Source: an uncultured Planctomycetales bacterium (GTDB lineage: Bacteria; Omnitrophota; Gorgyraeia; Zapsychrales; Fredricksoniimonadaceae). Taken from it: a stretch of 64,000 nucleotides of DNA. Both the position numbers and the translations under genes were made by a program. Positions 1-53,299 of this stretch are shown in pieces; position 1 is the first letter of the stretch, and every line of letters starts with the position of its first letter. The notes beneath the pieces are model-generated. The model ran no database searches and was not told the DNA's origin. It saw only the letters and a list, made by a program, of their open reading frames with translations. The stretch spans positions 291,552-355,551 of the forward strand of contig CAZOXU010000001.1 of assembly GCA_964583975.1 (NCBI GenBank), in the 5' to 3' direction.

Positions 1-1398
1 CAAATTAAATACAGCTTTGAGTGCACCAGCAAAAGCCCAGGCCAAAGGCGAACAGACCAAACCCACCCCGACCAAACCCAAACTCAAAATAATAACCAAG
101 TCTGCTAATGGCACAACAGGTATATTAGCAACGATAGATACGAGCGAAACAATTTCAAATTGATAAGCAATCAAGGGCGTTATGCCAATCCAGGCGATCA
201 GCGAGATGCTTAAGGCCTGAGCTATAAATTTTAAGAACCTAGGCTTAAAGTGCCGCTCAACCATCCCATTAACCAATGGCAAAAACGAAACAATGGACAG
301 CACGCATAGAAACGAAAGTTGAAAACCTATATCATAAAGACTTAAAGGGTTAATCAAGAGAATGATCAAGGCTGCAAGTCCAAGCGTATTAAGCGACTCT
401 CCCTCATATTCCAGACAAAATGAAGATAGAACAACACAGGCCATCAACACAGAACGCACCACCGAAGCAGACCAGCCACAGATGAAACAATAAAGCACCA
501 GAAAGACAGCTGTTAGAATGAATTGTCCCCTACGTGGCACACAAAGCACTTTTAAGGCAAACATCATCATGGCCCCAATGATCGCCATATTCATTCCGCT
601 GATCGCTAAAATATGCGATGTGCCGGTTTGACTAAAAAGCGCATACATGTCTTTGCTTAAAACTGAGCGATCACCTAAGGTCATCGCCTGAATCATACTG
701 ACTTCCTGTGGCTCTAAATAATACTCGAGAACTTGCTTAAATCGATGTTTGACCACTAAAGCAAGATGACCCCACCATGGCCCCTGATGGTGCGATAAGA
801 TTTCCAAAGATTTCTTCTTACCCACACTTAAAATGAAGAATAAACCATGGTCTTCCAAGTATTGTTGATATACAAACCTTTCTCCAGGATTACTTTTGGG
901 ACGAAATAAAGAGCCCTCAATCTTTATTCTGTCTCCATAATCAAGCTTCTGTGTCTTAAAACAATTCACCAATATGCTGCCTGTATTCGGCTGCCAGAGA
1001 TTTTCTAAAGCAAGACTCTCAATCTTTAATTCAAAAACCTGCTTGGTGCCATAAGCGGTTGCTTTAAGCTGAATATCTGAGTCAATAACTCCCTCGATCG
1101 CAGTCAGCTTCTTCTGGTCTTGATACGAAAGAAAAGCCACGTGATTTTCAGGCAGAATATAAACATTTTGATAATACAACGCCCCTAAACAAACTACCGA
1201 TAAATATAAAGGTACGATAAATAATCGAATTCTAAATAAACTTAAAGCAATGAAGGTTCCGCAAAGAACGCTCCACCAACCCCAAGTTAAAAATCCCAGA
1301 CGACCCAAGAATATACCCAGCGCAAGTGCCACACTCAAATCAAAACAAGGTCGATGGGTGCGTCGATCAAATTTTAAGATATCGGGTAATTTTCTCAT
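1..1398 (-). CDS. comEC: ComEC/Rec2-family competence membrane protein, N-terminal ~466 aa; C-terminus lies beyond the window start
   Basis: Manual minus-strand translation from the ATG at 1398 (MRKLPDILKFDRR...) stays open to position 1. It is polytopic and hydrophobic, with a competence-domain-like ILAISGMNMAII motif. It lies directly downstream of comEA, matching the conserved comEA-comEC order. Not in the ORF track because no stop codon falls inside the window. Confidence 0.6.
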   Translation of the reverse strand, partial: MRKLPDILKFDRRTHRPCFDLSVALALGIFLGRLGFLTWGWWSVLCGTFIALSLFRIRLFIVPLYLSVVCLGALYYQNVYILPENHVAFLSYQDQKKLTAIEGVIDSDIQLKATAYGTKQVFELKIESLALENLWQPNTGSILVNCFKTQKLDYGDRIKIEGSLFRPKSNPGERFVYQQYLEDHGLFFILSVGKKKSLEILSHHQGPWWGHLALVVKHRFKQVLEYYLEPQEVSMIQAMTLGDRSVLSKDMYALFSQTGTSHILAISGMNMAIIGAMMMFALKVLCVPRRGQFILTAVFLVLYCFICGWSASVVRSVLMACVVLSSFCLEYEGESLNTLGLAALIILLINPLSLYDIGFQLSFLCVLSIVSFLPLVNGMVERHFKPRFLKFIAQALSISLIAWIGITPLIAYQFEIVSLVSIVANIPVVPLADLVIILSLGLVGVGLVCSPLAWAFAGALKAVFNL

Positions 1399-1702
1399 AA
1401 CGTTGTGGACTCATTCCTCTGGCTTGATATAACGGTTCTAAATTCTTAAACTCACCTTGAGAATGCCGATAGCTGACAATAAATTGGGCGGTCTTAGGGC
1501 CAATCCCAGGAATCTTTAAAAGATCTTCGACTGAGGCTTTATTGATATTGATCTGATTAATCGGGGCACTTTTCTGAGCCGTATGTAACCAATTAAAAAC
1601 ACGCATATTCTTTTGCAGGCCAATATTAATCAAGGTCCCTGAAAAAATAATCACACACAGACCGAGCACAACAGCTCTTTCTTGAGGAGTCAGGTGAATC
1701 AC
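1367..1702 (-). CDS. comEA: ComEA-like helix-hairpin-helix DNA-binding competence protein (GTG start)
   Basis: N-terminal TM helix followed by a C-terminal (HhH)2 signature: ASVEDLLKIPGIGPKTAQFIV...LYQARGMSPQRYEKI. Confidence 0.75.
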   Translation of the reverse strand: MIHLTPQERAVVLGLCVIIFSGTLINIGLQKNMRVFNWLHTAQKSAPINQININKASVEDLLKIPGIGPKTAQFIVSYRHSQGEFKNLEPLYQARGMSPQRYEKITRYLKI

Positions 1703-1825: not shown

Positions 1826-2719
1826 TTAATTTTGATCAGGTTCAATATGAACCAAAACATCAGCGATGGATAGCGGGGATGCTATCAGGGCATCTTTAAC
1901 CTTATGCCCAATATCGTGGGCCTGACGCACAGGCATATTACCATCAACTAGCACATGGATATCAACAAATAATTGCTGACCGCTTTTACGCACGCGACAT
2001 TTTTCAATTGCAAATACACCAGACACTTGAGAAGCGATTCTACGAACAGAAGCCTCTATTTGTTCTCCAGGAGAATGGTCCATAATCTCAGCAACCGCAT
2101 GTTTAAAAAGAATAATGCCATTAAAAACAATAATGCAGCTGGCTACAATCGCTGCCCAATTATCTGCACTTTCATACCCTTTGCCGCCAACCAAAGTGAT
2201 TGAAATTCCTATAAAAGCCGCCACAGAAGTTAAAGCATCGGATCGGTGATGCCATGCATCCGTCTTAACGGAGATGCTGCGAACATCTTCAGCCACAGAA
2301 AAAAGAAATCGGAACAAAAACTCTTTAATGATTACAACGATAATGAGCACAATTAAGGTGAAGGCTGCAGGCGCGTGATGGGGATTTTTAAGTCCTTTGA
2401 TACTCTCGATTGCAATCTCCACTCCCACGCCCAAAAGCACCAAAGATACAAACATTGCGGCCAAGGATTCAGCCTTGCCATGACCATAAGGATGGTTCTT
2501 ATCAGCAGGCAAAGAACCAATCTTAATCCCTCCCCAGACAATCACAGAAGAAATGATATCCATAATCGACTCAATCCCATCAGCGATTAGGGCGTAAGAA
2601 TTACCTACAATCCCCGTCACGGTTTTGACGATAGCTAAAACTACATTACAAACCAAACCTATCGAAACACCATGTAAGCTTTTAGAGAAATGATCTTTAG
2701 AATTTGAAACGCTTGTCAT
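1826..2719 (-). CDS. Cation diffusion facilitator (CDF) family divalent-cation efflux transporter
   Basis: Six-TM N-terminal domain with the HPYGHGKAE motif, plus a C-terminal cytoplasmic domain, resembling FieF/CzcD. Confidence 0.85.
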   Translation of the reverse strand: MTSVSNSKDHFSKSLHGVSIGLVCNVVLAIVKTVTGIVGNSYALIADGIESIMDIISSVIVWGGIKIGSLPADKNHPYGHGKAESLAAMFVSLVLLGVGVEIAIESIKGLKNPHHAPAAFTLIVLIIVVIIKEFLFRFLFSVAEDVRSISVKTDAWHHRSDALTSVAAFIGISITLVGGKGYESADNWAAIVASCIIVFNGIILFKHAVAEIMDHSPGEQIEASVRRIASQVSGVFAIEKCRVRKSGQQLFVDIHVLVDGNMPVRQAHDIGHKVKDALIASPLSIADVLVHIEPDQN

Positions 2720-5700: not shown

Positions 5701-8196
5701 TTAAATGACAATACTAACAAGCTTCTTGGGGACGACAATAATTTTCTTGATAGTAGCCCCTTCGAGATAGCGGGCCACATTGGCATCTGCCAGGCAGAGT
5801 TTTTTCAGATCTTCATCAGAGGTGCAAACCGATGTCGTAAACTGACCACGAACCTTACCATTGATTTGAACGGCATAGGTGACTTCATCTTGCACCAGGG
5901 CTCGCTCATCAAAGGCGGGCCAGGCGACCTTACTGACGGTCTGATCTTTTTTGCCCATCATCTGCCAAAGCTCTTCGCACAAATGCGGCGTAAATGGGGT
6001 TAACAATAAGACGAGGGTTTCAATGGCTTGATTCAACGTAACCGTTGATTCTTGCTTATACTTATCAACGGCATTTGCCAAGATCATAGCCTGACTAATG
6101 GCTGTATTAAATTTATAACCTTCTTCAAAAGCTTGGGTAATCTGTCGGATAGCTAGATGACGGGCACGCTCTAAGGTTTGATCTGCTCCCTGCTCGGTGG
6201 TTTCTTTCGCATAACGTTTCTCAACCATCAAGTAAACACGGTTTAAAAATCGCCAGGCCCCCTCTAAACCATCACTATTCCATTCGAGCTGATCTTCTGG
6301 CGGAGCAGCAAAAAGAATAAATAAACGTAAAGTATCTGCACCATATCTATTTAAAACTTCATCCGGATCAACTGTGTTGCCCCGAGATTTAGACATCACT
6401 TCTCCATCTTTAAGCACCATCCCCTGGGTTAAAAGACGGACAAACGGTTCATTTAAATCAGTTAGTCCTAAATCTTTGAAGAATTTAGTAAAAAAACGAG
6501 AGTACAACAAATGTAATATAGCATGCTCGATACCACCGATGTATTGATCGACCGCCATCCAATATTTGGCTTCATCCTTATTAAAGACTTCTTGGTTGTT
6601 ATCTGCAGAACAAAACCGTAAGAAATACCAGGAAGAATCAAAGAAGGTGGCCATGGTATCGGTTTCACGGCGGGCTGCTTTAGAACATTTAGGGCACTTC
6701 ACATTAACGAAATCTTCTACACGATTTAAAGGAGAGCCTCCCTGCCCCGTGATTTCCACATTCTTAGGTAATGCTACAGGCAATTGCGCATAAGGAACAG
6801 GAACCACACCGCAAGCCTCGCAATAAATCATGGGAATCGGCGTTCCCCAGTAACGCTGGCGGGAAATCAGCCAATCACGCAAGCGCCAATGAATGGTTGT
6901 TTTACCCATGCGTTCTTGAGCCATCCATTCAGCAATTTTCTTCTTAGCTTCTTCATTATTAAGACCATCAAATTGCTTCGAATTAACCAAAACACCCGCA
7001 TCTTCATAAGCCTTGGTCATATCTTTTAATTCAAAAACCTCTTTAGGGTTTTGAATAACAATTTTCATGGCAAGCTTATGGTTGGTAGCGAATTCAAAAT
7101 CGCGCTGGTCATGGGTGGGTACCGCCATAATGGCGCCAGTCCCATACTCCATCAATACATAGTCCCCAATATAAACCGGAATAGAATCACCATTAACAGG
7201 ATTGATGGCATAACGGCCTGTAAACACGCCTTCCTTACGCTGATCGCCTGACATACGAAGGCTTTTACTTTTATTGGCTGTCTTCTCAATAAAGGTCCCA
7301 ATTTCTTTTTCTTGAGGAGTGCCAGCGACAAGTTTTTTAACCAAAGGATGTTCTGGAGCCAGGACCACATAGGTAGCCCCAAAAATGGTGTCGGGACGGG
7401 TAGTGAAAACCGGAATAATTTCGTCCGTAGGGGCAGGCCCCTGTGCCTGCCCTTCTTGAGGGCGACCACGGGGGGTCGCCCCTACAATTTTAAAATAAAT
7501 CTCTACCCCAAAACTCTTACCAATCCAATTCTCCTGCATAGCTCGCACACGTGAAGGCCAATGCTCGAGCTGCTTTAAGTCTTCCAGTAAGGTTTCAGCG
7601 TAATGAGTAATCTTTAGATACCACTGATCTAAGTCTTTTTGTTCGACATTGTTTTTGCAGCGCCAGCAAGCGCCATCGATAACTTCTTCGTTGGCTAAGG
7701 TTGTCTGACAGCTAGGACACCAATTGACGGAAGAAGCTTTCTTATAGGCAAGCCCACGTTCATACATCTTTAAAAAGATCCACTGATTCCATCGGTAGTA
7801 GTCACTGTCGCAAGTGGCAATTTCACGGTCCCAGTCATAGGCAAAGCCCATTTTCTTGAGTTCTTCTCTCATCTGGTCGATACATTGGTAGGTCCACTGA
7901 CCTGGGTCGGTCTTATGTTTGATAGCCGCATTCTCAGCAGGCTGACCAAAGGCATCGTAGCCCATGGGGTGAAGCACATTAAACCCTTGCATCATTTTGT
8001 AACGGGCCATCACATCGCCGATGGTATAGTTACGCACATGGCCCATATGAATCTTGCCCGAAGGATAGGGAAACATTTCTAAGACATAATACTTCTTCTT
8101 AGAAGCATCCGCTTCGACTTTAAAAGTCTTGCGCTGTTCCCAGAAACGTTGCCATTTTGATTCAATGGATTTGATGTCGTTGGTGGTATAAGGCAT
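5701..8196 (-). CDS. leuS: Leucyl-tRNA synthetase
   Basis: HMGH (PSGKIHMGHVRNY) and KMSKS (VMSKSRGN) class-I motifs; TTRPDT editing-domain motif; bacterial LeuS length. Contains a 59-bp element insertion. Confidence 0.95.
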   Translation of the reverse strand: MPYTTNDIKSIESKWQRFWEQRKTFKVEADASKKKYYVLEMFPYPSGKIHMGHVRNYTIGDVMARYKMMQGFNVLHPMGYDAFGQPAENAAIKHKTDPGQWTYQCIDQMREELKKMGFAYDWDREIATCDSDYYRWNQWIFLKMYERGLAYKKASSVNWCPSCQTTLANEEVIDGACWRCKNNVEQKDLDQWYLKITHYAETLLEDLKQLEHWPSRVRAMQENWIGKSFGVEIYFKIVGATPRGRPQEGQAQGPAPTDEIIPVFTTRPDTIFGATYVVLAPEHPLVKKLVAGTPQEKEIGTFIEKTANKSKSLRMSGDQRKEGVFTGRYAINPVNGDSIPVYIGDYVLMEYGTGAIMAVPTHDQRDFEFATNHKLAMKIVIQNPKEVFELKDMTKAYEDAGVLVNSKQFDGLNNEEAKKKIAEWMAQERMGKTTIHWRLRDWLISRQRYWGTPIPMIYCEACGVVPVPYAQLPVALPKNVEITGQGGSPLNRVEDFVNVKCPKCSKAARRETDTMATFFDSSWYFLRFCSADNNQEVFNKDEAKYWMAVDQYIGGIEHAILHLLYSRFFTKFFKDLGLTDLNEPFVRLLTQGMVLKDGEVMSKSRGNTVDPDEVLNRYGADTLRLFILFAAPPEDQLEWNSDGLEGAWRFLNRVYLMVEKRYAKETTEQGADQTLERARHLAIRQITQAFEEGYKFNTAISQAMILANAVDKYKQESTVTLNQAIETLVLLLTPFTPHLCEELWQMMGKKDQTVSKVAWPAFDERALVQDEVTYAVQINGKVRGQFTTSVCTSDEDLKKLCLADANVARYLEGATIKKIIVVPKKLVSIVI
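7427..7485. repeat. Family II nested-palindrome element, copy A (59 bp), in-frame inside leuS
   Basis: GTAGGGG-CAGGcccctgtgCCTGCC-cttcttga-GGGCGACCacgggGGGTCGCCC-CTAC. Translated as RGRPQEGQAQGPAP immediately before the TTRPDT motif. Confidence 0.9.
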
Positions 8197-9156: not shown

Positions 9157-9944
9157 TGAGCGACTCTCCCCTGATCATTGGTGGCCGATCCTTTAAAAGC
9201 CGATTTTTCTTAGGCACTGGTAAATTCAAAAATAAACAGGACCTGAATGACTCTATTGTCGCTTCTGGGACAGAGATTGTTACCGTTGCGCTGCGGCGCA
9301 TTGATTTAGAACGTCATGAAGATAATATCCTTGAATACATCCCCCAAAATATCACCCTTTTAACCAATACCTCTGGCGCACGTACGGCCCAGGAAGCTGT
9401 CCGCATCGCACGCTTAGCCAAGGCTTCTGGCTGCGGCAATTGGGTCAAGATTGAAGTCATCAACGATAGCAAATACCTGCTGCCAGATAACGAACAGACA
9501 ATCAAAGCAACCGAAATCCTAGCTGCTGAAGGCTTTGTGGTTCTACCTTACATGTATCCCGATCTTTATACCGCCCGCGCTCTGGTGAAAGCTGGCGCAG
9601 CGACTGTCATGCCGCTCGGCTCTTTAATCGGCAGTAATCAAGGCCTAAAGACTCGTGAATTTATCAAAATCCTAATTGATGAAATTGATATTCCCATCGT
9701 AGTTGATGCCGGAATCGGCGCTCCTTCCCAAGCTGCGGAAGCAATGGAAATGGGCGCTGATGCGGTACTAACCAATACTGCTGTAGCCACGGCTGAGCAT
9801 CCAGCGTTATTAGCCAAGGCCTTTGCCCAAGCTGTCGAGTCAGGGCGTATGGCTTACTTAAGCCGATTGCCTGCTTCCAAAGATTTAGCCTCTGCTTCTT
9901 CTCCGCTGACTGGATTTTTGTATGATCCCCTTACAAAAAATTAA
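9156..9944 (+). CDS. thiG: Thiazole synthase ThiG
   Basis: TIM-barrel ThiG family ([19 protein letters not shown] motifs); start overlaps the thiS stop. Confidence 0.9.
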
Positions 9945-10938
9945 AGACTTACTTGAGGACCAACGCCCGCAAGCCCTAGAAGAAATTGCCCAGGAAGCTG
10001 CTCGGGTGACTCGACAATATTTTGGCCGTACTATTGGATTGTATGCCCCGCTTTATTTATCGAATTACTGCTCCAGTCATTGCACCTACTGCGGCTTTCA
10101 TAGTAATAACAAAATTACTCGCATAAAGCTTACTCCTGATCAATATCGCCAAGAAATGCAGGTCATTCACTCTCAAGGCATCCGTAATATTCTCATGCTT
10201 ACAGGCGAATCATATAAACACACGCCGGTTGAATATTTAAAAGAAGCAGCCCAGGCTGCCTCGGAGTATTTTCAAGGCATTGCACTTGAAGTCCATCCTA
10301 TGAAAACCAATGAATATCAAGAACTCTTTACTGCAGGGGTCGATGGCATTACGGTTTATCAGGAAACCTATGACCGCAGCCGCTATGCGCAGGTGCATCT
10401 TTCTGGCTACAAAAAAGATTATGATTTTAGACGAGCCACTCCCCAGCGAGCTGCTGAAGGTGGCATGCGCCAGATTGCCATGGGCGTTCTTTTAGGATTG
10501 AGTGATGCTGCTAGCGATCTTCTAGAACTTTATAACCACTTACGCGAGATGGAACAATCTTTTCCTGGCGTTGAGTACAGCGTTTCCTTTCCCAGGCTTC
10601 GCACTATTAAAGACAAAGAATTTGCCCACTGTGATGTCGATGATATCCAATTAACCAAGATTGTTGCCTTAACACGCATCCTTTTTCCTCGGGTAGGAAT
10701 CAATCTTTCCACCCGTGAAGATGCGCGCTTACGTGATCATTTGCTTGAAATCGGAATTACCCGTATGTCCGCAGGTTCAAATACATCGGTGGGTGGATAC
10801 TCTCTGCTGAACGAAGAAGAACAAGACCCTCAATTTGATATTAAAGATGAACGCTCGGTGGCTGATATTATTGCCCTACTTAAACGTAAGAATTTTGATC
10901 CTGTCTTTACGGACTGGCGACGAATTGAAAATAGGTAA
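9922..10938 (+). CDS. thiH: Radical-SAM 2-iminoacetate synthase ThiH (tyrosine lyase)
   Basis: [10 protein letters not shown] radical-SAM cluster motif; located in the thiS-thiG-thiH cluster. Confidence 0.8.
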
Positions 10939-10943
10939 AAAAT

Positions 10944-11048
10944 GTCATCCCCGAATGCTTTTATCGGGGATCCAGGCACAAGTGCCAGCCAGAGGCTGGT
11001 CAGCCCTGGACTGAAACTAGGTTCCCGATTAAAACGTTCGGGGATGAC
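10944..11048. repeat. Family I palindromic element, copy 2 (105 bp, extra GC-rich hairpin inserted in its centre)
   Basis: GTCATCCCCGAATGCTTTTATCGGGGAT...GTTCCCGATTAAAACGTTCGGGGATGAC, with the internal palindrome CCAGCCAGAGGCTGG. Intergenic between thiH and thiF. Confidence 0.85.
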
Positions 11049-11060
11049 ATAAGGTTATCC

Positions 11061-11669
11061 ATGAATATCTTTGAACAAGGCCTTTTAAAATACTTAAAAC
11101 CCGAACAGTTACATCAAATCCAATCTAAAAAGATCGGTATTGGTGGCGCGGGCGGATTGGGTTCGAATTGCGCCATGATGCTGGTACGAACAGGTTTTAA
11201 ACATTTTGAAATTATCGACAAAGATGTGATCGATCCTTCAAATTTAAACCGTCAGCAATACTTCATTGATGAAATTGGCTTATCCAAGGTTGAAATCACC
11301 AAGCAGAGGCTTTTAAAAATCAATCCGCAGGCTGAAATCATTATTCACCAAGCAGAGTGGAATGAACAAAATGCTGATCAATTCTTCAAAGGTTTTGATT
11401 TTATTGTAGAAGCCTTTGATGTGGCTGATTGGAAATACCGCTTCGCGCAGTACCACTCTCCTCGTTTTCCTGTAGTTGTTAGCGGTGTTGGAATGGCAGG
11501 CTTGACTCAAAAGCAACCCATGACGGTCAAAAAGATGGGCAATATCTACATCTGTGGAGATAGAAACACTGACTCGCACCAAGGCCATCCACCTATGGCT
11601 CCGCGCGTGAGTGCTTGTGCAGCCATGATGGCTGAGACCATTCTCGATTTAACTCTTAATATTAAATAG
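11061..11669 (+). CDS. thiF: ThiF/MoeB-family adenylyltransferase (short E1-like form)
   Basis: Gly-rich Rossmann motif GIGGAGGLGS; ~200 aa; last gene of the thi cluster. Confidence 0.7.
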   Translation: MNIFEQGLLKYLKPEQLHQIQSKKIGIGGAGGLGSNCAMMLVRTGFKHFEIIDKDVIDPSNLNRQQYFIDEIGLSKVEITKQRLLKINPQAEIIIHQAEWNEQNADQFFKGFDFIVEAFDVADWKYRFAQYHSPRFPVVVSGVGMAGLTQKQPMTVKKMGNIYICGDRNTDSHQGHPPMAPRVSACAAMMAETILDLTLNIK

Positions 11670-34560: not shown

Positions 34561-35076
34561 TTACCAGTTTTCGATCGTACGTTCAACAACCCGACGAGCA
34601 AGATCCGTCAGGGTATCATTTAAAGCTTGGGCTTCGCTCTTGGCTTGAGGGCCGCTGGTAAAGAATGTTGATTCACCTACAAGAGAAGGTTCCTGCCAAA
34701 AAATTTGGCCGGTGGTGTTGTCCATCATAGTCAATGCAACAACAATACGTAAACGAAACTCTAAAACATTCTGTGATGTATCAGTTCTTAAATCATCTCG
34801 TTCATACGCTATTAATTCTCCTTTAAGAACTAAATCGCTCTTATCTGAATCACTTAAACGCAAATGCCCATCTAATTGGAATCGATCAATAATGGCATTT
34901 CGCACCTTGGTCTCTAAAAGCGGTACATATAATTTTTGTGAATTTTCGTCAATAAAAGCTACCTTGTTTTGAAAAGGCGTGACATGCAAAGTTTTATAAC
35001 TCGAAGATAATAAAGAACCGGTTGTGTACCCACAACCAGAGAAAAACACCAACATACAAATTAACAGGCGTCGCAT
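34561..35076 (-). CDS. lptE: LptE-like outer-membrane LPS-assembly lipoprotein
   Basis: Lipobox FFSGC; ~170 aa; located immediately upstream of holA as in the conserved leuS-lptE-holA arrangement. Confidence 0.5.
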   Translation of the reverse strand: MRRLLICMLVFFSGCGYTTGSLLSSSYKTLHVTPFQNKVAFIDENSQKLYVPLLETKVRNAIIDRFQLDGHLRLSDSDKSDLVLKGELIAYERDDLRTDTSQNVLEFRLRIVVALTMMDNTTGQIFWQEPSLVGESTFFTSGPQAKSEAQALNDTLTDLARRVVERTIENW

Positions 35077-40751: not shown

Positions 40752-41996
40752 TTAAATAGCCTCTTTATTAATCATTCCTGCTAATTTAATCGGTAAAATG
40801 GCTTTCAGTCGAATGCCTTTAACTAAATACTTGACCTCCAAAACCTGTCCCTGGGCGTAAGCGCTGTTAACTAAATCCATACGTGATTTCTCTAATAGAA
40901 CATCCACCTCGATCGAACGCTCGCCTAAAGCTTCTTCAATCGTTAATAGCAGTGAATGGATGTTCTGACCCTTTAAAGCTGAAACAGCCACCATCCAAGG
41001 ATAATCATTCTTAAATTCCAGCAAACGTTTCTGGTCCTCAAGCAGGTCAACTTTATTGAGAACTAAAACAGTAGGTTTATCAAGCACTTGCAGTTCTTTC
41101 AATACAGCGTTTACTGCCAAATAGAAATTTTTATACTGAGGATTACTGATATCCATCACGTGTAAAAGCAAATCAGCTTGTTGGACCTCCTCCAGCGTCG
41201 CCTTAAAAGCTTCAATCAGACCGTGCGGCAAGTCATGCATAAATCCAACCGTATCAGTCAACACCACCTTACGATGATCTGGCAAGGAAGTCTGACGCGA
41301 CAAAGAATCCAAGGTCGTGAAAAGTCCATCATGTGTACGTGTAGCCGCATCGGTTATGGTATTGAGCAAGGTACTTTTACCTGCATTGGTATAGCCCACC
41401 AGAGCAATCGTGGGCACAAGCTGTTCTTGACGCTTCTTGCGCTTAACCTGCCGGGATAGGCTTACTTGCTTAAGGTCTTTGGTAAGCTTGGTAATGCGAG
41501 CGGCAATGCGGCGTCGGTCAACTTCCAGCTTGGTTTCACCAGGCCCTGAGGTTCCAATACCACCACCCTGCCTCGACATTTCAGCCCCATGACCAGTTAA
41601 GCGAGGCAGACGATACTGAAGTTGCGCTAACTCAACTTGCATTTTACCTTCCATGCTCTTGGCATTACGGGCAAAAATCTCTAAGATTAACTGCGTACGG
41701 TCTATCGTCTTGACCCCAAAGTCTGCCTCGAGATTTCGCTGCTGCACGCCTTTTAAATCATAGCTTATAATCACACAATCAACACCCCCTAAGGCACAAA
41801 TAGCAGTTATCTCCTCCACCTTACCGTGGGTAATCAAATGAGAAGCCGTAGGCGGAATGGCTTTACAAAAAACTGTCTGAACAACTTCACCTGAACACGA
41901 ATGAATGAGATCAGTCATTTCAGCAGCTTCATCCTGGGGAGTCCAGTTGCTGCGCTGATTTAAGGTGACGATCACTAAAAGTATTTTTTCTCGCAT
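40752..41996 (-). CDS. hflX: GTPase HflX
   Basis: HflX N-domain plus G-domain motifs GYTNAGKST, DTVGF, NKVD. Confidence 0.9.
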   Translation of the reverse strand: MREKILLVIVTLNQRSNWTPQDEAAEMTDLIHSCSGEVVQTVFCKAIPPTASHLITHGKVEEITAICALGGVDCVIISYDLKGVQQRNLEADFGVKTIDRTQLILEIFARNAKSMEGKMQVELAQLQYRLPRLTGHGAEMSRQGGGIGTSGPGETKLEVDRRRIAARITKLTKDLKQVSLSRQVKRKKRQEQLVPTIALVGYTNAGKSTLLNTITDAATRTHDGLFTTLDSLSRQTSLPDHRKVVLTDTVGFMHDLPHGLIEAFKATLEEVQQADLLLHVMDISNPQYKNFYLAVNAVLKELQVLDKPTVLVLNKVDLLEDQKRLLEFKNDYPWMVAVSALKGQNIHSLLLTIEEALGERSIEVDVLLEKSRMDLVNSAYAQGQVLEVKYLVKGIRLKAILPIKLAGMINKEAI

Positions 41997-41998
41997 AG

Positions 41999-42063
41999 AA
42001 AATTAGGGACAACCCCCTATTTTATCCTTTCACTTAAGAAAATAGGGAGTTGTCCCTAATTTT
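41999..42063. repeat. Family III palindromic element, copy 1 (65 bp): AAATTAGGGACAACCCCCTATTTT ... AAAATAGGGAGTTGTCCCTAATTT
   Basis: Hairpin with an ~20-bp stem; stem differs from copies 2/3 by paired changes (ACCC/GAGT vs GCGC). Encodes the last 8 codons plus stop of miaA. Lies 2 nt upstream of the hflX start. Confidence 0.85.
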
Positions 42064-42981
42064 ATTCACAATATCTGATATTGAATCTTCCATTACAATC
42101 CAATTAATACGTCGATCCCGCCTAAACCAAGTCATCTGACGTTTGACATAATGACGGGTGTTAAGTTTCATCTGATACTTAGCCTGCTGTAGATCATATT
42201 GTCCTTGCAGGTACCCTTGGATTTCTGGCACGCCGATTAACGTTCGAGCAGTTGGGCTTAATGACTTCTTAGTAATCTGTTCAATTTCCTCAACCAATCC
42301 CTTCTCAAACATCGCTTCAATGCGATCTTCGGCTCGGCTATAAAGTTCTGGTCTGGGCCGCTCTAATCCAACTATTTTGATCTCACAGCTACCCCATAGC
42401 CCCTGGCGTCTTTGCTGTAAAGCAGAAAATGGTTTTTGCGTAATCTCAATGACCTCAAGGGCCCGCACAATGCGCTTGGCATCATTGCTATGAATCTTAG
42501 CCGCTGCCTGCGGATCTAACTCTTTCAAACGTTGATACAAAGCTTCTGTTCCTTCTTTTTTAATCTGGCGCTCGAGCTTCTCTCTGAGGGCATCATCCTT
42601 AGCTGCTTCATCGAAAATTCCATCGAGCAGCACTGAGATATACATTCCGCTCCCTCCCACCACGATAGGAGTTTTATTTTTCTTGTGAATCGATTCAATC
42701 GCCTGTAAGGCCGCCTTGCGATAGCGAGCTACATCAAAGTCCTCTGTCACTGAAACCAGATTAAGGCAATGATGTTTTACAGCTTTTAATTCATCCGGGG
42801 TTGGTTTGGCACTAGCGATATCGATTTCTTTGTAGACTTGCATCGCATCACACGACACAATTTCACTTTTGAATTGCTTCGCTAGCGCGAGGGCTACAGC
42901 AGTCTTACCAACAGCAGTGGGACCTACAATAAATATAATTGATTGATTTTTTCTGATCACTGACCACTGATCACTGTTCAC
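42034..42981 (-). CDS. miaA: tRNA dimethylallyltransferase MiaA
   Basis: P-loop GPTAVGKT, typical MiaA length (315 aa). Confidence 0.9.
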   Translation of the reverse strand: MNSDQWSVIRKNQSIIFIVGPTAVGKTAVALALAKQFKSEIVSCDAMQVYKEIDIASAKPTPDELKAVKHHCLNLVSVTEDFDVARYRKAALQAIESIHKKNKTPIVVGGSGMYISVLLDGIFDEAAKDDALREKLERQIKKEGTEALYQRLKELDPQAAAKIHSNDAKRIVRALEVIEITQKPFSALQQRRQGLWGSCEIKIVGLERPRPELYSRAEDRIEAMFEKGLVEEIEQITKKSLSPTARTLIGVPEIQGYLQGQYDLQQAKYQMKLNTRHYVKRQMTWFRRDRRINWIVMEDSISDIVNKIRDNSLFS

Positions 42982-44944: not shown

Positions 44945-45616
44945 TTATTGGGCACGGCTTAATTCAAACACAAAACCCTTAACGCGGCCGGTCACAGGAT
45001 CTTTGACCTTTGAGGTCATTCGGGCTATCTCTTCTGTCGAACACTCGTCTTCAAATTTCACCACCAGCCGGCGGCTAGGCTTAGAGCGGTTATGGACCTT
45101 GGCTACAGGTTCCTGGCCCAAAAAACAACCCTTGGTATACGAGGTAAATTTAAACTCATCGATATTTAGAATAAATTCATCCGCCTGAAAATCTCCGCCG
45201 GAGACGGATCCGCCTTTGGCGGAAACGCCCATCAAAGGGATTTTTCTTTCAAGTCGAAAGAGGGTAAATTCCTCATCAGAAACATTACTTTCTGTTATTT
45301 CATTTGAGAAAACCACGCGGCCTGAATCGATATTCATATACGACCGATACTCTGCCGATGGGATAAGGCTTGTATGATTAAGCTTAGCATAGCGCTCAAG
45401 ATGTTTTAACAACGCCTCGTTAGCCACTTGAGGTACGCTTAATAAAAAGTGATCTTCCGATCGCTTTTCTTGGGCGCAGGTGGCAATGACCCGGCCATGT
45501 TGATTTAAAAAGGCATTAAAAGGCTGATCTAGTGAATTAGACGTCAGGCCGTTTAAGAATTTCTCAGCATTGCCGCTAACTTCTAAGACAATATCATCAA
45601 GTTTGTATAGTCGCAT
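44945..45616 (-). CDS. YgfZ/GcvT-like folate-binding protein
   Basis: Conserved KGCFLGQE motif of the YgfZ family. Confidence 0.5.
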   Translation of the reverse strand: MRLYKLDDIVLEVSGNAEKFLNGLTSNSLDQPFNAFLNQHGRVIATCAQEKRSEDHFLLSVPQVANEALLKHLERYAKLNHTSLIPSAEYRSYMNIDSGRVVFSNEITESNVSDEEFTLFRLERKIPLMGVSAKGGSVSGGDFQADEFILNIDEFKFTSYTKGCFLGQEPVAKVHNRSKPSRRLVVKFEDECSTEEIARMTSKVKDPVTGRVKGFVFELSRAQ

Positions 45617-45618
45617 AT

Positions 45619-45687
45619 AAATTAGGGACAGCGCCCTATTTCACCCTATTTTTTCTTGCTTGCTAAATAGGGCGCTGTCCCTAATTT
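45619..45687. repeat. Family III palindromic element, copy 2 (69 bp): AAATTAGGGACAGCGCCCTATTT caccctattttttcttgcttgct AAATAGGGCGCTGTCCCTAATTT
   Basis: Perfect 23-bp inverted arms. Provides the cca C-terminus KLGTAPYLASKKK plus stop. Abuts the start of the downstream gene. Confidence 0.9.
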
Positions 45688-47052
45688 AGCTGCCAACACC
45701 AACGCTTCTTGTTTCGTAGCTATCTTCCCCAATGCTTGAGCCTCTTGAACTTCAGATAGAATCTTCGTAAATAGCGGCGATGGTTTTAATTTAAGCTTTT
45801 TGATTAAATCATGCCCCGTCAACAAACGTACCAGAGGTTTCTGATTTTGACTGTCGATAAAACGCTCGATCACCTGCCAGCAGGTTTTACGATGATGCTC
45901 ACTCTTGGCCTTCTTGGTCAAAGGCCCACGTGTGGCTCGCTGATCAGCGAGCGCTAAAAGTAAAACACTTAAAGCTTCCTGCTTTGTATCACGCAAAAAA
46001 CGAAAAACCATTCGCTCGGAAGGTTGTTTAAAATTTGACATATATCCTGGGCGCAAATGCCAGGCCACCATATCTTCTAAGAAATATCGCTCCTTGACCG
46101 CCAACTTTAAATGTTTAGCCACAATGCGGGTGATATCAGCCCCCACCTTTTCATGACCATGAAAGGTCATGCGGTCTTTTTCTTTTTTCTTGGTGTCAGG
46201 TTTACCGATATCATGCAACAGACAAGCAAACTTCAACAACGCATATCGCTTGTGATTGGCTGCAATTTCTTCTTGGAGATAATTTTGAATAAATGGATCT
46301 TCGATTTCGAGAGCTAACAGTTCAAACTGACGTACCACCTCGAGCGAATGCTTCCAAACATCCAGATGATGATATCCGCCTTGATGAACGCCTTCCATCA
46401 CACCGAGTTGGGGCATGATCTTTTGCAGTAATCCTGCTTTGTGCATCAAAACAATGGTCTCAACCGTTCTGCTAGAAGCTAAAACCTTAAACCATTCTTC
46501 TCGAACCCGCTCGACCGAAACCTTACTTATGCGACTAATATCTTTTTGAATCTGCTTAAAAGTCTTAGCTTCGATCTTAAATCCCAACTGAGCCGATAAA
46601 CTAAAGGCTCGCATTAGTCTCAGCGGATCATCAGCAAAAGCCCGGGACGCGACCATCCTGATAGTCTTTGATTTCAGATCTTTAGTGGCCCCACGATAAT
46701 CCAATATCTTCGTATCATTAATACTCTGGCATAAGGTATTGATCGTAAAATCACGTAGGGCTACATCCTTCTGCAGTGATTCAGCACGAAAATCAGAAAA
46801 ATCATAGGTCCACAGTTGCCCTTCTTCTTTTTTGACAACCCGTCCGCACGGATGTTCTTCATCTAAAAGAACAAAAGCCCCTTTGATCTTTTTAGCAAAG
46901 GCCCGAGCCAGTTCGATTGCATTCTTCGAGACCGTAAAATCAAAATCAAAACCTTCGCGGTTTAAATATTGGTCGCGTAAACGGCCGCCAACCAAATAAA
47001 CCGAAACTCGGCCTCGAGCTGCTAATGTTTGGATAGTAGATAAATACTTCAT
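45646..47052 (-). CDS. cca: CCA-adding tRNA nucleotidyltransferase / poly(A) polymerase family with HD domain
   Basis: Pol-beta nucleotidyltransferase N-terminus YLVGGRLRDQYL..DFDF and HD motif LLHDIGKP. Confidence 0.75.
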   Translation of the reverse strand: MKYLSTIQTLAARGRVSVYLVGGRLRDQYLNREGFDFDFTVSKNAIELARAFAKKIKGAFVLLDEEHPCGRVVKKEEGQLWTYDFSDFRAESLQKDVALRDFTINTLCQSINDTKILDYRGATKDLKSKTIRMVASRAFADDPLRLMRAFSLSAQLGFKIEAKTFKQIQKDISRISKVSVERVREEWFKVLASSRTVETIVLMHKAGLLQKIMPQLGVMEGVHQGGYHHLDVWKHSLEVVRQFELLALEIEDPFIQNYLQEEIAANHKRYALLKFACLLHDIGKPDTKKKEKDRMTFHGHEKVGADITRIVAKHLKLAVKERYFLEDMVAWHLRPGYMSNFKQPSERMVFRFLRDTKQEALSVLLLALADQRATRGPLTKKAKSEHHRKTCWQVIERFIDSQNQKPLVRLLTGHDLIKKLKLKPSPLFTKILSEVQEAQALGKIATKQEALVLAAKLGTAPYLASKKK

Positions 47053-49312: not shown

Positions 49313-49329
49313 AATCTCCTCTTAAGATT

Positions 49330-49397
49330 GTCATCCCCGAATGCTTTTATCGGGGATCTAGTGCACTAGTTGCCCGACTAAAACATTCGGGCATGAC
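49330..49397. repeat. Family I palindromic element, copy 5 (68 bp)
   Basis: GTCATCCCCGAATGCTTTTATCGGGGATCTAGTGCACTAGTTGCCCGACTAAAACATTCGGGCATGAC. Intergenic between glyA and rpiB. Confidence 0.85.
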
Positions 49398-49402
49398 AGG
49401 TG

Positions 49403-49855: not shown

Positions 49856-50919
49856 TACAAAAGCTCCACAATACGTTCGATCGCTTCATTAATATTTAAC
49901 AAGCACTCTTCATAAGCCACATGGGATTGACCAATAGGATCTGGAATATCTTCATTGCCTTCAGGGCCAGCAGCGTGATGGCAGAATTCTTTTAAAAGAT
50001 ACACGCGCTGCTCAACATAGGGCACATGATCTAAAATTTGGGCGCGATGTGACCTAGTCATAGCCAAAATTAAATCTGCTTTGCGTAGCATCGTCCTGCC
50101 TAATGGCTTTGAAATATGAGCAGCGGCATTAATGCCTCGTTGGCGTAATACCGTTAAAGTCTCTTGGCTGGCAGAAGATTTAAAAAACACATTGGTGCCT
50201 GCGGAGAGGACTTCAACATCTTCGCGGCCAATCAACTTAGCTTTTAGCAAATATTCAGCCATAACTGAGCGACAGCTGTTTCCTGTGCAGACAAACAATA
50301 CAACCTTCTTATTAACCGCACGATCCACATCAGATTGACTGATCACTCCTTCACGAATCACTGTTGGCTTAGGTTTGGTGAAATCGACAATCGTTGAGGA
50401 AACACCAAATTCCACTGGCCCGCCATCAATGGCTAAATCAACCAATCCATCCAAATCTTCCAAGGCTTCAAAAACATTGGTCGGCGCTTTCTTACCTTCT
50501 AAATTTGCGGAAGGAGCGGCAATTGTGCAACCAGATTGCTGCACCAAATTAAGAGCAATAGTGTGATCTGGCATACGGATCCCCACCGTATCCTGGCCAT
50601 CCTTGGTTGGCACAATGACAGTTAACGGTCCTGGCCAATATTTATCAATGAGCTTATATAAATTTGGTTTTGTATAATTCGCATAATTCTCAACAATCCC
50701 TCTTTGAGCGACCAAAATTGAATATCGCTTACCGTCTGAACGTTTTTTAACGGATGATAAACGTTCTATCGCTTGGGGATTATTAGCATCAGCCGCAATC
50801 CCATAGACGGTCTCGGTCGGAAAAACAACCAAGCCTCCCTGGCGAATAATACGGGCAGCCTCGCTGATTTTGTCAGATTCAGGAACAGCAGGATTAATTT
50901 TGAGAATCTTGGTTCGCAT
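49855..50919 (-). CDS. tsaC: Fusion protein: L-threonylcarbamoyladenylate synthase TsaC/Sua5 (N) + low-molecular-weight protein (Tyr/Arg) phosphatase (C)
   Basis: N-terminal YrdC domain (VVFPTETVYGIAADA) and C-terminal LMW-PTP P-loop VLFVCTGNSCRS. Confidence 0.75.
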   Translation of the reverse strand: MRTKILKINPAVPESDKISEAARIIRQGGLVVFPTETVYGIAADANNPQAIERLSSVKKRSDGKRYSILVAQRGIVENYANYTKPNLYKLIDKYWPGPLTVIVPTKDGQDTVGIRMPDHTIALNLVQQSGCTIAAPSANLEGKKAPTNVFEALEDLDGLVDLAIDGGPVEFGVSSTIVDFTKPKPTVIREGVISQSDVDRAVNKKVVLFVCTGNSCRSVMAEYLLKAKLIGREDVEVLSAGTNVFFKSSASQETLTVLRQRGINAAAHISKPLGRTMLRKADLILAMTRSHRAQILDHVPYVEQRVYLLKEFCHHAAGPEGNEDIPDPIGQSHVAYEECLLNINEAIERIVELL

Positions 50920-50923
50920 AATT

Positions 50924-50996
50924 AAATTAGGGACAGCGCCCTATTTCACCTTATTTTTTCTTTCTTACTTGCTAAATAGGGCGCTGTCCCTAATTT
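50924..50996. repeat. Family III palindromic element, copy 3 (73 bp)
   Basis: Arms identical to copy 2. Provides the purD C-terminus KLGTAPYLASKKEKIR plus stop. Abuts the tsaC start. Confidence 0.9.
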
Positions 50997-52259
50997 AGCA
51001 AGGGCTTTTTGTCCAATATCACGTCTAAAGAAGATATGATCAAATTGGATCTTATCGACAGATTCATAGGCCTTGGCAATGGCTTTTTCAAGTGAAGCAC
51101 CTAAACTAGCAACACCTAAAACTCTTCCCCCCGCTGTGACTAGAGAACCGCCATCATTTTTTGTTCCTGCGTGAAAAACAATAGTGTCTGGATCATTAAT
51201 ATCTTCTAGGCCCTTGATCTCATAACCATTTTGATATTTGCCAGGATATCCGCCGGAAGTCAAGACCACACAGACACATGATCGCTGGTCCCATTGTACC
51301 TTTAATTCATTGAGTCTGCCGTCACACGAAGCCAACATGATTTCAACAAGATCGCTTTTCAATTTAGGTACAATACTCTGCGTTTCTGGGTCACCAAAAC
51401 GCGTGTTAAATTCTAACACAAATGGCCCGCTATTGGTTAACATTAAGCCTGCGTACAATACTCCCTTAAATGGTACACCCTGGGCATACATTCCCCGCAA
51501 AGTAGGTTCAATAATTTTCTTAATAATGATATCTAAAATCTCTGCAGTCACAATTGGGGCAGGACAATAAGAACCCATACCACCGGTATTCGGCCCTAAA
51601 TCTTCATCAAAAATCCGTTTATGATCTTGAGCGCTAGGCAAAACCAAAAAATGTTTGCCATCACAAATCGCCAACACCGAGGCTTCCTGACCTTGCAGGC
51701 AATCCTCAACGACGATTCTTTCTCCAGCCGTTCCATAAAGCTTCTGAACCATGATTTCATCAACAGCTATCTGGGCTTCTTTTAAATTGGCGCACACATA
51801 CACACCTTTACCTGCTGCAATCCCGTCAGCTTTAACTACCAAAGGAAATCTCGCTGAGTTCAAGAAATCTAAGGCATCGATAAATCTTTCAAAAACTTTA
51901 TAGCTGGCGGTTGGGATATCATGACTCGATAAGAATTGTTTCGTATAAATCTTGCTGCCTTCTAATTGTGCAGCTTCCTTACTTGGACCAAAGATCTTCA
52001 GTCCTTTTTGAGAAAAGACATCAACAATACCAACAACCAAGGCTGCCTCGGGGCCTACCACGGTCAGGTCAATTTTCTTAGATAGAGCAAATTTCAACAA
52101 GCCTTCGATATCATCAACAGCAATATTGACGCACTCGGCAATCTGAGCGATACCACCATTGCCTGGGGCGCAATAAAGCTTCTTAACCTTAGGACTCTGT
52201 TTGATCTTCCAGCACAGCGCATGCTCTCTGCCGCCAGAACCAATGACTAGAATGTTCAT
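50946..52259 (-). CDS. purD: Phosphoribosylamine-glycine ligase
   Basis: ATP-grasp PurD; MNILVIGSGGREHAL N-terminus. Confidence 0.9.
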   Translation of the reverse strand: MNILVIGSGGREHALCWKIKQSPKVKKLYCAPGNGGIAQIAECVNIAVDDIEGLLKFALSKKIDLTVVGPEAALVVGIVDVFSQKGLKIFGPSKEAAQLEGSKIYTKQFLSSHDIPTASYKVFERFIDALDFLNSARFPLVVKADGIAAGKGVYVCANLKEAQIAVDEIMVQKLYGTAGERIVVEDCLQGQEASVLAICDGKHFLVLPSAQDHKRIFDEDLGPNTGGMGSYCPAPIVTAEILDIIIKKIIEPTLRGMYAQGVPFKGVLYAGLMLTNSGPFVLEFNTRFGDPETQSIVPKLKSDLVEIMLASCDGRLNELKVQWDQRSCVCVVLTSGGYPGKYQNGYEIKGLEDINDPDTIVFHAGTKNDGGSLVTAGGRVLGVASLGASLEKAIAKAYESVDKIQFDHIFFRRDIGQKALAKLGTAPYLASKKEKIR

Positions 52260-52268
52260 TTTTTCCCT

Positions 52269-52295
52269 GTACGGGCTGGGTAACCCAGCCCCTAC
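52269..52295. repeat. Mini single-hairpin relative of Family II: GTACGGG-CTGGGtaaCCCAG-CCCCTAC
   Basis: Shares the CCCCTAC terminus; the other terminus is one mismatch from GTAGGGG. Fills the purM-purD intercistronic gap and overlaps the purM stop. Confidence 0.6.
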
Positions 52296-53299
52296 CCTAT
52301 AAAAATAATTTTCTTCTTATTATCAGAAACAACCTTACCAATCACAAATGATTCTAATTTCAACTGACGAAGGAACGCTTGCACCTTAACAACATCCTTG
52401 GGTGCAACAACCAAGCTCAATCCAATTCCCATATTAAAGGTGCGATACATATCATGCTCAGGCACATGGCCCTTATCTTGAATCAAGGTAAATATACGTG
52501 GCACAGGCCAGCTACCCTTATGTATAGAGAAGGCCAATCCCTTTGGTAAAACCTTGGTTAATTTCTCATACCAAGCACCGCCGGTCATGTGCGCCATGCC
52601 CTTGACGGTAAACTTTTCTAATAAAGCTAAAACTGGCTTCACATAAATACACGTTGGTTTGAGCAAAATCTGTGCATAGTCTCGTTGTTCTTTAGCGCTT
52701 AAAGCTTTGCGAGCCAGAGAATATCCATTGGAGTGTAATCCTGAGGAAGGCAAACCAATGACCACATCACCGTCTTGGATTTTTGTACCATCTATAATAC
52801 GATCGCGCTCAACAATTCCTACAGTAAACCCTGCTAAATCGTAGTCTTCGCCTCGGTACATATCGGGCATTTCAGCGGTCTCGCCCCCGATGAGAGCGCA
52901 GCCGGCCTGATGACATCCAGCCACAATGCCCTTCATCACATCCTTCATCATCCGGTTATTGAGTTTGCCGGTCGCAATATAATCGAGGAAGAACAATGGT
53001 TTAGCACCCGTACACAAGACATCATTGACGTTCATGGCTACCAAATCAACGCCTACCTTATCATGCTTACCAACCAAATTAGCAACAAGAAGTTTGGTGC
53101 CAACGCCATCCGTCGAAGAAACAAGGACTGGATTTTTATATCCTTTTAAATCCAAAGCAAACAAAGCACCAAACGAACCTGGACGATTTAATACCCCTTT
53201 ACTGATGGTTGATCGAGCCAAGCCTTTGATATCATCGACAAAGCGATTGGCCTTAGCAATATCCACACCAGCTTTTTTATAGGTTAATGATAGTTTCAT
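52292..53299 (-). CDS. purM: Phosphoribosylformylglycinamidine cyclo-ligase
   Basis: AIR synthase family; 335 aa. Confidence 0.9.
   Translation of the reverse strand: MKLSLTYKKAGVDIAKANRFVDDIKGLARSTISKGVLNRPGSFGALFALDLKGYKNPVLVSSTDGVGTKLLVANLVGKHDKVGVDLVAMNVNDVLCTGAKPLFFLDYIATGKLNNRMMKDVMKGIVAGCHQAGCALIGGETAEMPDMYRGEDYDLAGFTVGIVERDRIIDGTKIQDGDVVIGLPSSGLHSNGYSLARKALSAKEQRDYAQILLKPTCIYVKPVLALLEKFTVKGMAHMTGGAWYEKLTKVLPKGLAFSIHKGSWPVPRIFTLIQDKGHVPEHDMYRTFNMGIGLSLVVAPKDVVKVQAFLRQLKLESFVIGKVVSDNKKKIIFIG

Follow-up and report, generated by a model that had tools for sequence, protein, structure and literature searches.

Three hairpin-forming repeat elements lie across the 3' ends of the housekeeping genes miaA, cca and purD in a 64,000-nucleotide (nt) stretch of the genome of an uncultured bacterium, referred to below as the window and placed in the Omnitrophota by a purD search. 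The first-pass annotation of this DNA had proposed the three elements and their positions, and sequence reading, a repeat finder and a mismatch-tolerant arm search now agree on them. With up to two mismatches allowed, the arm search yields six matches in the window, against 0 expected from 100 dinucleotide shuffles, and a unit profile scan of the 64 kb detects no copies besides the three elements. Arms of 23–25 nt, which are 96–100% complementary, enclose loops of 15, 23 and 27 nt. The element termini read AAATTAGGGAC...GTCCCTAATTT, and in all three copies a GGGAC...GTCCC core is flanked by TA...TA (AAAT-TA-GGGAC...GTCCC-TA-ATTT).

Hairpin elements at three gene ends

All features described in this section are read from the minus strand. 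Copy 1 (41999-42063) consists of a gene-side arm at 42039-42063, a loop at 42024-42038 and a far arm at 41999-42023. Its 25-nt arms, 96% complementary and 15 nt apart, are of the subfamily GGGACAAC[C/T]CCC, the ACC subfamily (GGGACAACCCCC), whose both-arms-matched form is also present in an unrelated metagenome-assembled genome (MAG; loci L020, L079 and L097). The single mismatch is C.A on the plus strand and G.U on the minus strand. Copy 2 (45619-45687; gene-side arm 45665-45687, loop 45642-45664, far arm 45619-45641) has perfect 23-nt arms of the subfamily GGGACAGCGCCC and a 23-nt loop. Copy 3 (50924-50996; gene-side arm 50974-50996, loop 50947-50973, far arm 50924-50946) has perfect 23-24-nt arms and a 27-nt loop. 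It shares its arms with copy 2, as well as a GCT 5' of the arm, and the two loops are identical at 21 of 23 positions, apart from a 4-nt indel. The near identity of the loops implies that the doublet was duplicated as a block, and copies 2 and 3, judged by their sequence, are sister copies. The minus-strand RNA of copies 1, 2 and 3 is predicted to fold with energies of -38.6, -47.0 and -42.8 kcal/mol (z -7.8, -8.8 and -7.9, respectively).

Each element encodes the end of the gene that it overlaps. The miaA gene (42034..42981; Pfam IPPT) is translated to a protein ending in ...NKIRDNSLFS, of which codons 307-315 (KIRDNSLFS) and the TAA stop at 42034-42036, located in the loop, are supplied by copy 1 (42034..42063). 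The cca product (45646..47052; Pfam PolyA_pol and HD) ends in ...AAKLGTAPYLASKKK: codons 456-468 (KLGTAPYLASKKK) and the TAG stop at 45646-45648, again in the loop, derive from copy 2 (45646..45687). The purD product (50946..52259; Pfam GARS) ends in ...LAKLGTAPYLASKKEKIR, with codons 422-437 (KLGTAPYLASKKEKIR) and the TGA stop at 50946-50948, on the boundary of loop and far arm, encoded by copy 3 (50946..50996). The earlier claim that the elements provide the C-termini and stop codons of these genes is thus upheld for the last 9-16 residues. All of these residues are situated beyond the last Pfam domain, which ends at residue 289 in miaA (IPPT), 452 in cca and 418 in purD (GARS_C). On the sense strand every copy presents a stop in all three reading frames before the far arm, and this limits the tails to their 9-16 residues. 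Two unrelated enzymes, those encoded by cca and purD, end in KLGTAPYLASKK because the same element is read in the same frame. The ...YLASKK tail was considered as an SsrA-like degron and the idea was set aside, as the tail has no LAA-type ending.

The downstream genes begin almost immediately after the hairpins. The start codon of hflX (41994..41996; HflX domains in Pfam) is 2 nt past the far arm of copy 1, that of a 223-aa gene (45614..45616) is 2 nt past the far arm of copy 2, and that of a tsaC-like gene (Sua5/YrdC and LMWPc domains; 50917..50919) is 4 nt past the far arm of copy 3. The proximity to the next start described previously therefore holds, with the proposed spacing of 2-26 nt corrected to 2, 2 and 4 nt. 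Measured from the stop codons, the next starts, at 41996, 45616 and 50919, are 37 (miaA), 29 (cca) and 26 nt (purD) away. The N-terminus of hflX aligns with those of relatives from codon 1 (MREKILL versus MSEKILL or VKERILL). The 'ygfZ-like' label given to the 223-aa gene has a sub-threshold GCV_T match as its sole basis.

All three downstream genes open with ATG CGA, compared with one of approximately 47 other open reading frames (ORFs) in the window (Fisher test, post hoc, ∼2e-4). The lone other gene-like ORF with this start (34561..35076, start codon 35074-35076) follows a native, repeat-free ...GCA AAA TAA ATG CGA junction. In related genomes the second codons of tsaC and hflX are different, and the ATG CGA start of the 223-aa gene is also native in two of them (L102 and L107). 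ATGCGA was considered as part of the element or of its target and was rejected, being found beside 0 of 238 units in other genomes.

A dispersed repeat family and an associated transposase

An arm-pattern scan of one genome per species retrieved 101 loci from MAGs labelled as Omnitrophota, Syntrophales/Smithella, other Deltaproteobacteria, Elusimicrobia, Planctomycetes, Vulcanimicrobiota, Spirochaetota and others. Since many matches sit on long contigs, this breadth is unlikely to result from mis-binning. The loci and the window together contain 242 core matches, and the 116 units whose sequence the search pattern did not dictate have as their consensus a ∼26-nt sequence, GAAAAATA-GGGACAGCGCCC-TATTTT (flank also given as GAAAAWTA), conserved from -8 to +17. 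The unit is self-complementary and forms a small palindrome (AAAATAGGG / CCCTATTTT), each arm scoring as a stem-loop on its own. Grouping of the units gives 154 elements, including 66 inverted doublets, 74 singlets and a few clusters. In a set of 68 doublets the two arms match each other in every subfamily (GCG, GCT, ACC and CCC, with TCAACT in L110), and in other genomes the loops differ from copy to copy. A loop-specific 20-mer of copies 2 and 3 found 0 matches in a metagenome scan for sister copies, and the unit found none in plasmids, phages or viral contigs. The counts range from three doublets in the 64-kb window to as many as ∼14 exact-pattern loci per MAG and ∼15 units in 8 kb of the Syntrophales locus L012. 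The tetranucleotide preceding GGGAC is TTAG, ATAG or AATG, and not GTAG or CGTC; only the TAG is shared with GTAG.

Units and doublets alike are bracketed by A-runs and T-runs, a consensus scan scores the arms as terminator-like, and units occur at ORF 3' ends. These features would suit bidirectional intrinsic terminators or attenuators that resemble one another by chance, each strand presenting an A-tract, a GC stem and a T-tract. Such an origin is highly improbable: convergence is implausible for an identical sequence of 16-22 nt across phyla, and the window copies are inside an operon, just upstream of tsaC and hflX, where no promoter fits into the remaining 2-4 nt. The elements are moreover absent in relatives and associated with a transposase. 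Integron attC sites are characterized by core sites (R''/R', RYYYAAC ... GTTRRRY) and belong to cassette arrays. This identity was also discarded, as the termini AAATTAGGGAC...GTCCCTAATTT lack core sites and the flanking genes are syntenic housekeeping genes.

The overlap with gene ends extends to the family as a whole. The first-pass annotation had proposed counting how many other copies overlap ORF 3' ends, and the count reveals a systematic trend rather than a coincidence of three: 39 of the 154 elements include the stop of an ORF that is 150 aa or longer, whereas random placement gives 9.7 ± 2.9 (maximum 17 in 200 trials), an approximately four-fold excess. The unit's own TAG (AAT-TAG-GG) is the stop of 18 ORFs and a TAA abutting the unit that of six; a further ∼21 ORFs stop 5-12 nt upstream of a unit, ∼27 stops in all being placed 4-12 nt upstream, and ∼17 ORFs read through a unit, acquiring tails such as IGTAPIF, KMGTAPYF, NRDSALF and WGQLPIF.

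Clustering of the ORFs located within 1.5 kb of units disclosed the likely partner of the family. The most recurrent neighbour is a protein of ∼225 aa that matches Pfam Y1_Tnp (E 1e-14) and the NCBIfam equivalog REP_Tyr_transpos, 'REP-associated tyrosine transposase' (RAYT; REP, repetitive extragenic palindromic), with 81.2 bits against a cut-off of 80. HUH (NHVH/NHIH/NHFH), WQ/FQ and Y..NP motifs are kept in six copies, two of them from Omnitrophota. In at least three loci, L078, L057 and L048, the last from Omnitrophota, the transposase gene is bracketed by inverted units, one per side; in L078 a plus-strand unit at 4451 precedes the gene (4511-5188) and a minus-strand unit follows at 5200. 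Inverted flanking units are a hallmark arrangement of RAYT genes. An identical 16-nt core accompanies transposases of 30-55% identity from different phyla, an observation that demonstrates existence only, as the search pattern preselected the core. No RAYT gene was detected in the 64-kb window by tblastn, and no DDE transposase recurs near units in the ORF clustering.

Other features of these neighbourhoods may be mentioned here. In L012 the RAYT gene (1065-1751) itself ends inside a REP unit, as ...PRKEKIGTAPIF (...KEKIGTAPIF), and sits within an array of 12 or more units (150-2010) that share one orientation upstream of the gene and are of mixed orientation downstream. Genes for AAA_14/DUF4143 ATPases (L012 2087-3289 and L058 35-1333, as well as L033, L071 and L093) and for PIN_3-domain proteins (L070 492-905, L089 3709-4131 and L093 1665-2087) are situated within ∼1 kb of units; their recurrence may reflect a build-up of repeats in accessory or defence-type regions.

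The palindromic unit, its pairing into doublets and the RAYT gene bracketed by inverted units identify the repeats as REP units and the doublets as REPINs, REP doublets that form hairpins (as defined in PMC3116915), a class that the first-pass annotation had not recognised. The window elements are thus very probably REPINs of a RAYT-associated family, inserted in tight operon junctions where they give rise to tails and stops. The family is newly seen in the Omnitrophota and in several little-studied phyla.

The parallels with described REP/REPIN-RAYT systems (Nunvar 2010, PMC2817692; Bertels & Rainey 2011, PMC3116915; Di Nocera 2013, PMC3733652) are extensive. In both cases the unit is a short imperfect palindrome, doublets with a spacer fold into long hairpins, singlets are common, inverted units stand on both sides of a RAYT-type Y1/HUH gene and copies are present in some and absent from other related genomes. 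A bias towards the 3' side of ORFs, TAG stops given by the unit terminus and the translation of some copies as C-terminal residues are likewise common to both. Indeed, REPs mostly follow ORF 3' ends at a short distance and can provide TAG stops; they are also present in coding regions, slightly more than 10% at the coding end (Di Nocera 2013, PMC3733652). The donation of stops and C-terminal tails, which had been regarded as unseen before, accordingly has a published REP precedent, and another in Rickettsia: it is a documented side effect of REP insertion and no new mechanism. The differences concern the hosts, which are Omnitrophota, Elusimicrobia, Planctomycetes, Syntrophales and others as opposed to well-studied Proteobacteria; the TTAG/ATAG/AATG tag; and the presence of the same core in different phyla, contrary to the published picture of REPINs as mostly restricted to a lineage and transmitted vertically. 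In addition, all three window copies overlap 3' coding ends and are not 'extragenic'. This weakens the name REP more than the membership, because the literature accepts such overlaps (PMC3733652).

A closer relationship may exist with a particular group of transposases. The flanking repeats of TIRYT, or TnpA-Y1 subclass 2.1 (Bertels Group 1), share the motif GGGG[AT][CG]A[CG] (PMC3733652; Quentin 2018, PMC6006769). The proteins described here resemble this subclass in their NHVH, WQ/FQ and Y(I/V)xxNP motifs, in their length (∼226 aa versus a subclass median of 238) and in their flanking inverted repeats, which contain GGGGACAG (in the AATGGGGACAG variant) or GGGACAG; the AATGGGGACAG variant matches the motif at 8/8 positions and TAGGGACAG at 7/8. 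The C-terminal helix-turn-helix domain typical of subclass 2.1 was not detected by Pfam in the two proteins scanned. Unlike in TIRYT, the flanking repeat in this case is a dispersed REP-like family that forms doublets: TIR families have been described as only 'moderately abundant' (Di Nocera 2013, PMC3733652) and no REP-like sequences were reported for subclass 2.1 (Quentin et al. 2018, PMC6006769).

Two further systems offer partial analogies. Rickettsia palindromic elements (RPEs; cited in PMC3733652) are palindromes tolerated in-frame in coding genes, where they add residues to conserved proteins. No resemblance to RPEs was noticed, though no sequence comparison was made; RPEs are read through internally, whereas the elements discussed here occupy the extreme 3' end, bring a stop and have an associated transposase family. 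Escherichia coli REPs resemble the window copies in that, on a polycistronic mRNA, a stable hairpin coincides with the stop of the upstream gene or lies only a few nt from it. The E. coli hairpin follows the stop, whereas in the window the loop contains the stop and the stem borders on the next start codon. When located near stop codons, E. coli REPs reportedly affect translation and mRNA stability.

Repeat-free junctions in related genomes

Four relatives of the window lineage (L102, L103, L105 and L107) preserve the gene order purM-purD-tsaC-rpiB-glyA-nrdR-BFN-cca, and L103 and L105 also miaA-hflX. None of the four carries a unit over the 11-21 kb covered. Copies 2 and 3 are missing from the cca and purD-tsaC junctions of all four. 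In L103 and L105 miaA and hflX overlap, and copy 1 is missing at this junction. The stop/start junctions of the relatives are tight, ranging from about -4 to +41 nt, with 7 of 10 within 11 nt: the purD-tsaC gap measures -4, +4, +11 or +21 nt, and that between cca and the next gene +3, +3, +11 or +40 nt.

The proposed comparison with orthologous proteins was carried out for purD. Orthologs down to 70% identity cover 96% of the query and lack the tail, with the exception of one independent insertion, and end 2-19 residues after RRDI as opposed to 22 in the window purD. Native purD tails are short, variable and Lys-rich. Repeat-type tails are present in 2 of 120 purD homologs, the window gene and that of L110, so that the KLGTAPYLASKK tail is derived from the element and is not kept where the repeat is absent; such tails are, as far as the alignments indicate, lineage-specific. 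The loop was also considered as native gene sequence, LASKK... bearing a faint likeness to NLAKSK tails, and this was rejected: the closest relative ends in KPVVQKMSK. The likeness is taken as chance in Lys/Ala-rich tails because the same loop is found at cca too.

L110, a member of the Omnitrophota whose purD is 71% identical, carries a variant doublet at 7254-7319 (also in L109) composed of AAAATGGGGTCAACTCCCTATTTT, a 19-nt loop and an inverted arm, with an RNA fold of -54 kcal/mol. The doublet occupies the same purD-tsaC junction in an equivalent frame, so that purD ends in ...DIAGKMGSTPYFAQQIHKQK with the tail KMGSTPYFAQQIHKQK. Either this junction was hit independently, or the insertion is an old one that relatives in between have lost.

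These comparisons bear on the suggestion that the elements are conserved as RNA hairpins. Exapted regulatory hairpins could be kept for protection from 3' exonucleases, for setting the ratio of upstream to downstream expression or for coupling by masking the next start. The minus-strand RNA folds are very stable (z -7.8 to -8.8), all three copies hold the stop in their loop with the next ATG 2-4 nt beyond the stem, and the purD-tsaC junction is occupied by a doublet in a second lineage too, where the stop marks the beginning of the far arm. The copy 1 mismatch is a G-U pair on the sense strand, and REPs are biased to ORF 3' ends and have been argued to act as RNA (PMC3733652). However, four syntenic relatives do without a hairpin at all three junctions, loops are unconserved between copies in other genomes and the geometry is equally well accounted for if insertions merely survived in an operon that has hardly any room between its genes. 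Rfam 15 returned generic hairpin matches only, of 23-30 bits against gathering scores of 62-107, none above threshold. The wobble-strand test on the 68 doublets is equivocal: minus-sense doublets show 10 sense versus 3 antisense wobbles and plus-sense doublets 3/3, small counts that are dominated by one asymmetric subfamily. The first-pass annotation had correctly described the arm differences of copy 1 (ACCC..GAGT versus GCGC..GCGC) and its single G-U position, from which it argued for an RNA hairpin. That argument does not stand: the apparent compensation is a difference between subfamilies, the G-U pair is one observation, and matching arms are expected in REP doublets, whose transposase acts on single-stranded DNA hairpins. 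A regulatory RNA role is therefore possible, if rather unlikely.

The repeat-free cca junction of L102 (16404-16419) reads AAATTATAATTT, that is AAA TTA TAA TTT ATG, and corresponds to the outer flanks of the window doublet joined together. A 'core-only' insertion of GGGAC...GTCCC between TTA and TAA, as this site would imply, is contradicted by the A-rich flank conserved in the unit; target mimicry at this junction is possible. The same sequence has a bearing on whether the elements are classical miniature inverted-repeat transposable elements, in which the 23-nt arms would be the terminal inverted repeats of a deleted DDE-type insertion sequence (IS) with a TA (or TTA/TAA) target duplication, and that IS, not a Y1 enzyme, would move them. 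TA...TA does bracket the core in all three copies, as palindromic flanks in which a duplication and an inverted repeat look alike, and the empty site of L102 is AAATTATAATTT. Nevertheless, the empty site predicted from a TA duplication, AAATTAATTT, differs from that of L102. Half of the elements are single units that are palindromes themselves, many partner arms read AATG-GGGAC, without TA, and the A-rich flank is conserved in the unit. The sole recurrent neighbouring transposase is of the Y1/RAYT type with inverted flanking units. The chances of a DDE-type origin appear very slim.

Insertions of other kinds are found in the same region. A PhdYeFM antitoxin/ParE-like toxin pair lies between a purQ-like gene and purM in L102 (8458-8971), and the antitoxin is present too on the contig of P0002, the closest purD relative (91% identity), an indication that in several lineages the purine operon can accommodate small mobile elements between its genes. 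The window itself contains a second, unrelated palindromic family (TGTCATCCCCGAATGCTTTTATCGGGGATC..., arms of 34-38 nt) at 1727-1801, 10942-11050 and 49329-49398. These copies do not overlap coding ends and are in the spacers between ORFs 1367..1702 and 1826..2719, between ORFs 9922..10938 and 11061..11669, and between rpiB and glyA. A GC-rich palindrome at 52258-52306 (GGGTAGGGGCTGGGT T ACCCAGCCCGTACAGGG), set between T- and A-runs, fills the purM-purD spacer, overlaps the stop region of purM and extends as far as the purD ATG; it resembles a terminator or belongs to another type of repeat.

Probable insertion into tight operon junctions

IS200/IS605 transposases and the E. coli RAYT handle elements of this kind as single-stranded DNA hairpins. 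By analogy, the window elements would be processed as such hairpins and moved in trans by a RAYT whose gene lies at another place in the genome, and three copies would have landed in the long co-directional operon of this Omnitrophota lineage. As there is no intergenic room, an insertion of 65-73 nt must overlap a coding end and displace the native stop region; the upstream ORF would then read into the gene-side arm and end at the first stop. The resulting tails are probably tolerated rather than functional: natural purD ends are short and variable and contain many Lys residues, so that a junk tail of this composition is likely to do little harm. On the mRNA, a hairpin with a predicted stability of -39 to -47 kcal/mol would leave 2-4 nt ahead of the next start codon. 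Translation of the upstream gene to its end would melt the gene-side arm and thereby free the far arm and the downstream start. In this manner the ancestral translational coupling is plausibly retained, which may be the reason why these particular insertions survived.

A number of observations weigh against REP doublet insertion as formulated here. The transposases look like members of TnpA-Y1 subclass 2.1/'TIRYT', for which no REPs were found, and, as no RAYT gene is present in the window, the link to a transposase is drawn at the level of the family. The TTAG/ATAG/AATG tag differs from the GTAG or CGTC of the two described REP superfamilies. The boundaries of the insertions are ambiguous, the L102 junction being equal to the joined outer flanks, yet these flanks are conserved in the unit. 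Simple random insertion does not explain the ATGCGA starts; nor does the possible copying of a doublet along with its flanks, given that copy 1 has other arms and another loop. Finally, the neutrality of the tails and the retention of coupling are what we infer.

A more far-reaching reading is that the family is targeted to stop/start junctions. Targeting, rather than mere survival, may operate through sequences of the AAA-TAA...ATG type that mimic the A/T-rich feet of the unit. Furthermore, the doublet may have moved together with its flanks (GCT...TAATTTA-N-ATGCGA), supplying the upstream gene with a tail and a stop and the downstream gene with a start and a second codon; such a mobile 'junction cassette' may preserve translational coupling. 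As a separate matter, the identical core in different phyla could reflect either cross-phylum spread or an unusually constrained REP-RAYT recognition code. Taken jointly, these propositions are improbable. If true, cross-phylum spread or a constrained code would contradict the picture of REPINs as lineage-specific and vertically inherited.

Insertion of REP doublets has consequences for genome annotation and for the known range of these systems. In the housekeeping genes of uncultured phyla, the repeats create C-terminal extensions (of the GTAPY(F/L)-, RDSALF- and GQ(L/R)PI-type) that look spurious but are real, as well as shifted stops, and an annotator who knows the unit can mark these tails as products of a repeat. 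The range of REP/REPIN-like doublets linked with a RAYT-type transposase now includes Omnitrophota, Elusimicrobia, Planctomycetes and Syntrophales, and the transposase in question is of a Y1 subclass (2.1/TIRYT-like) for which dispersed REPs had earlier been reported as not found.

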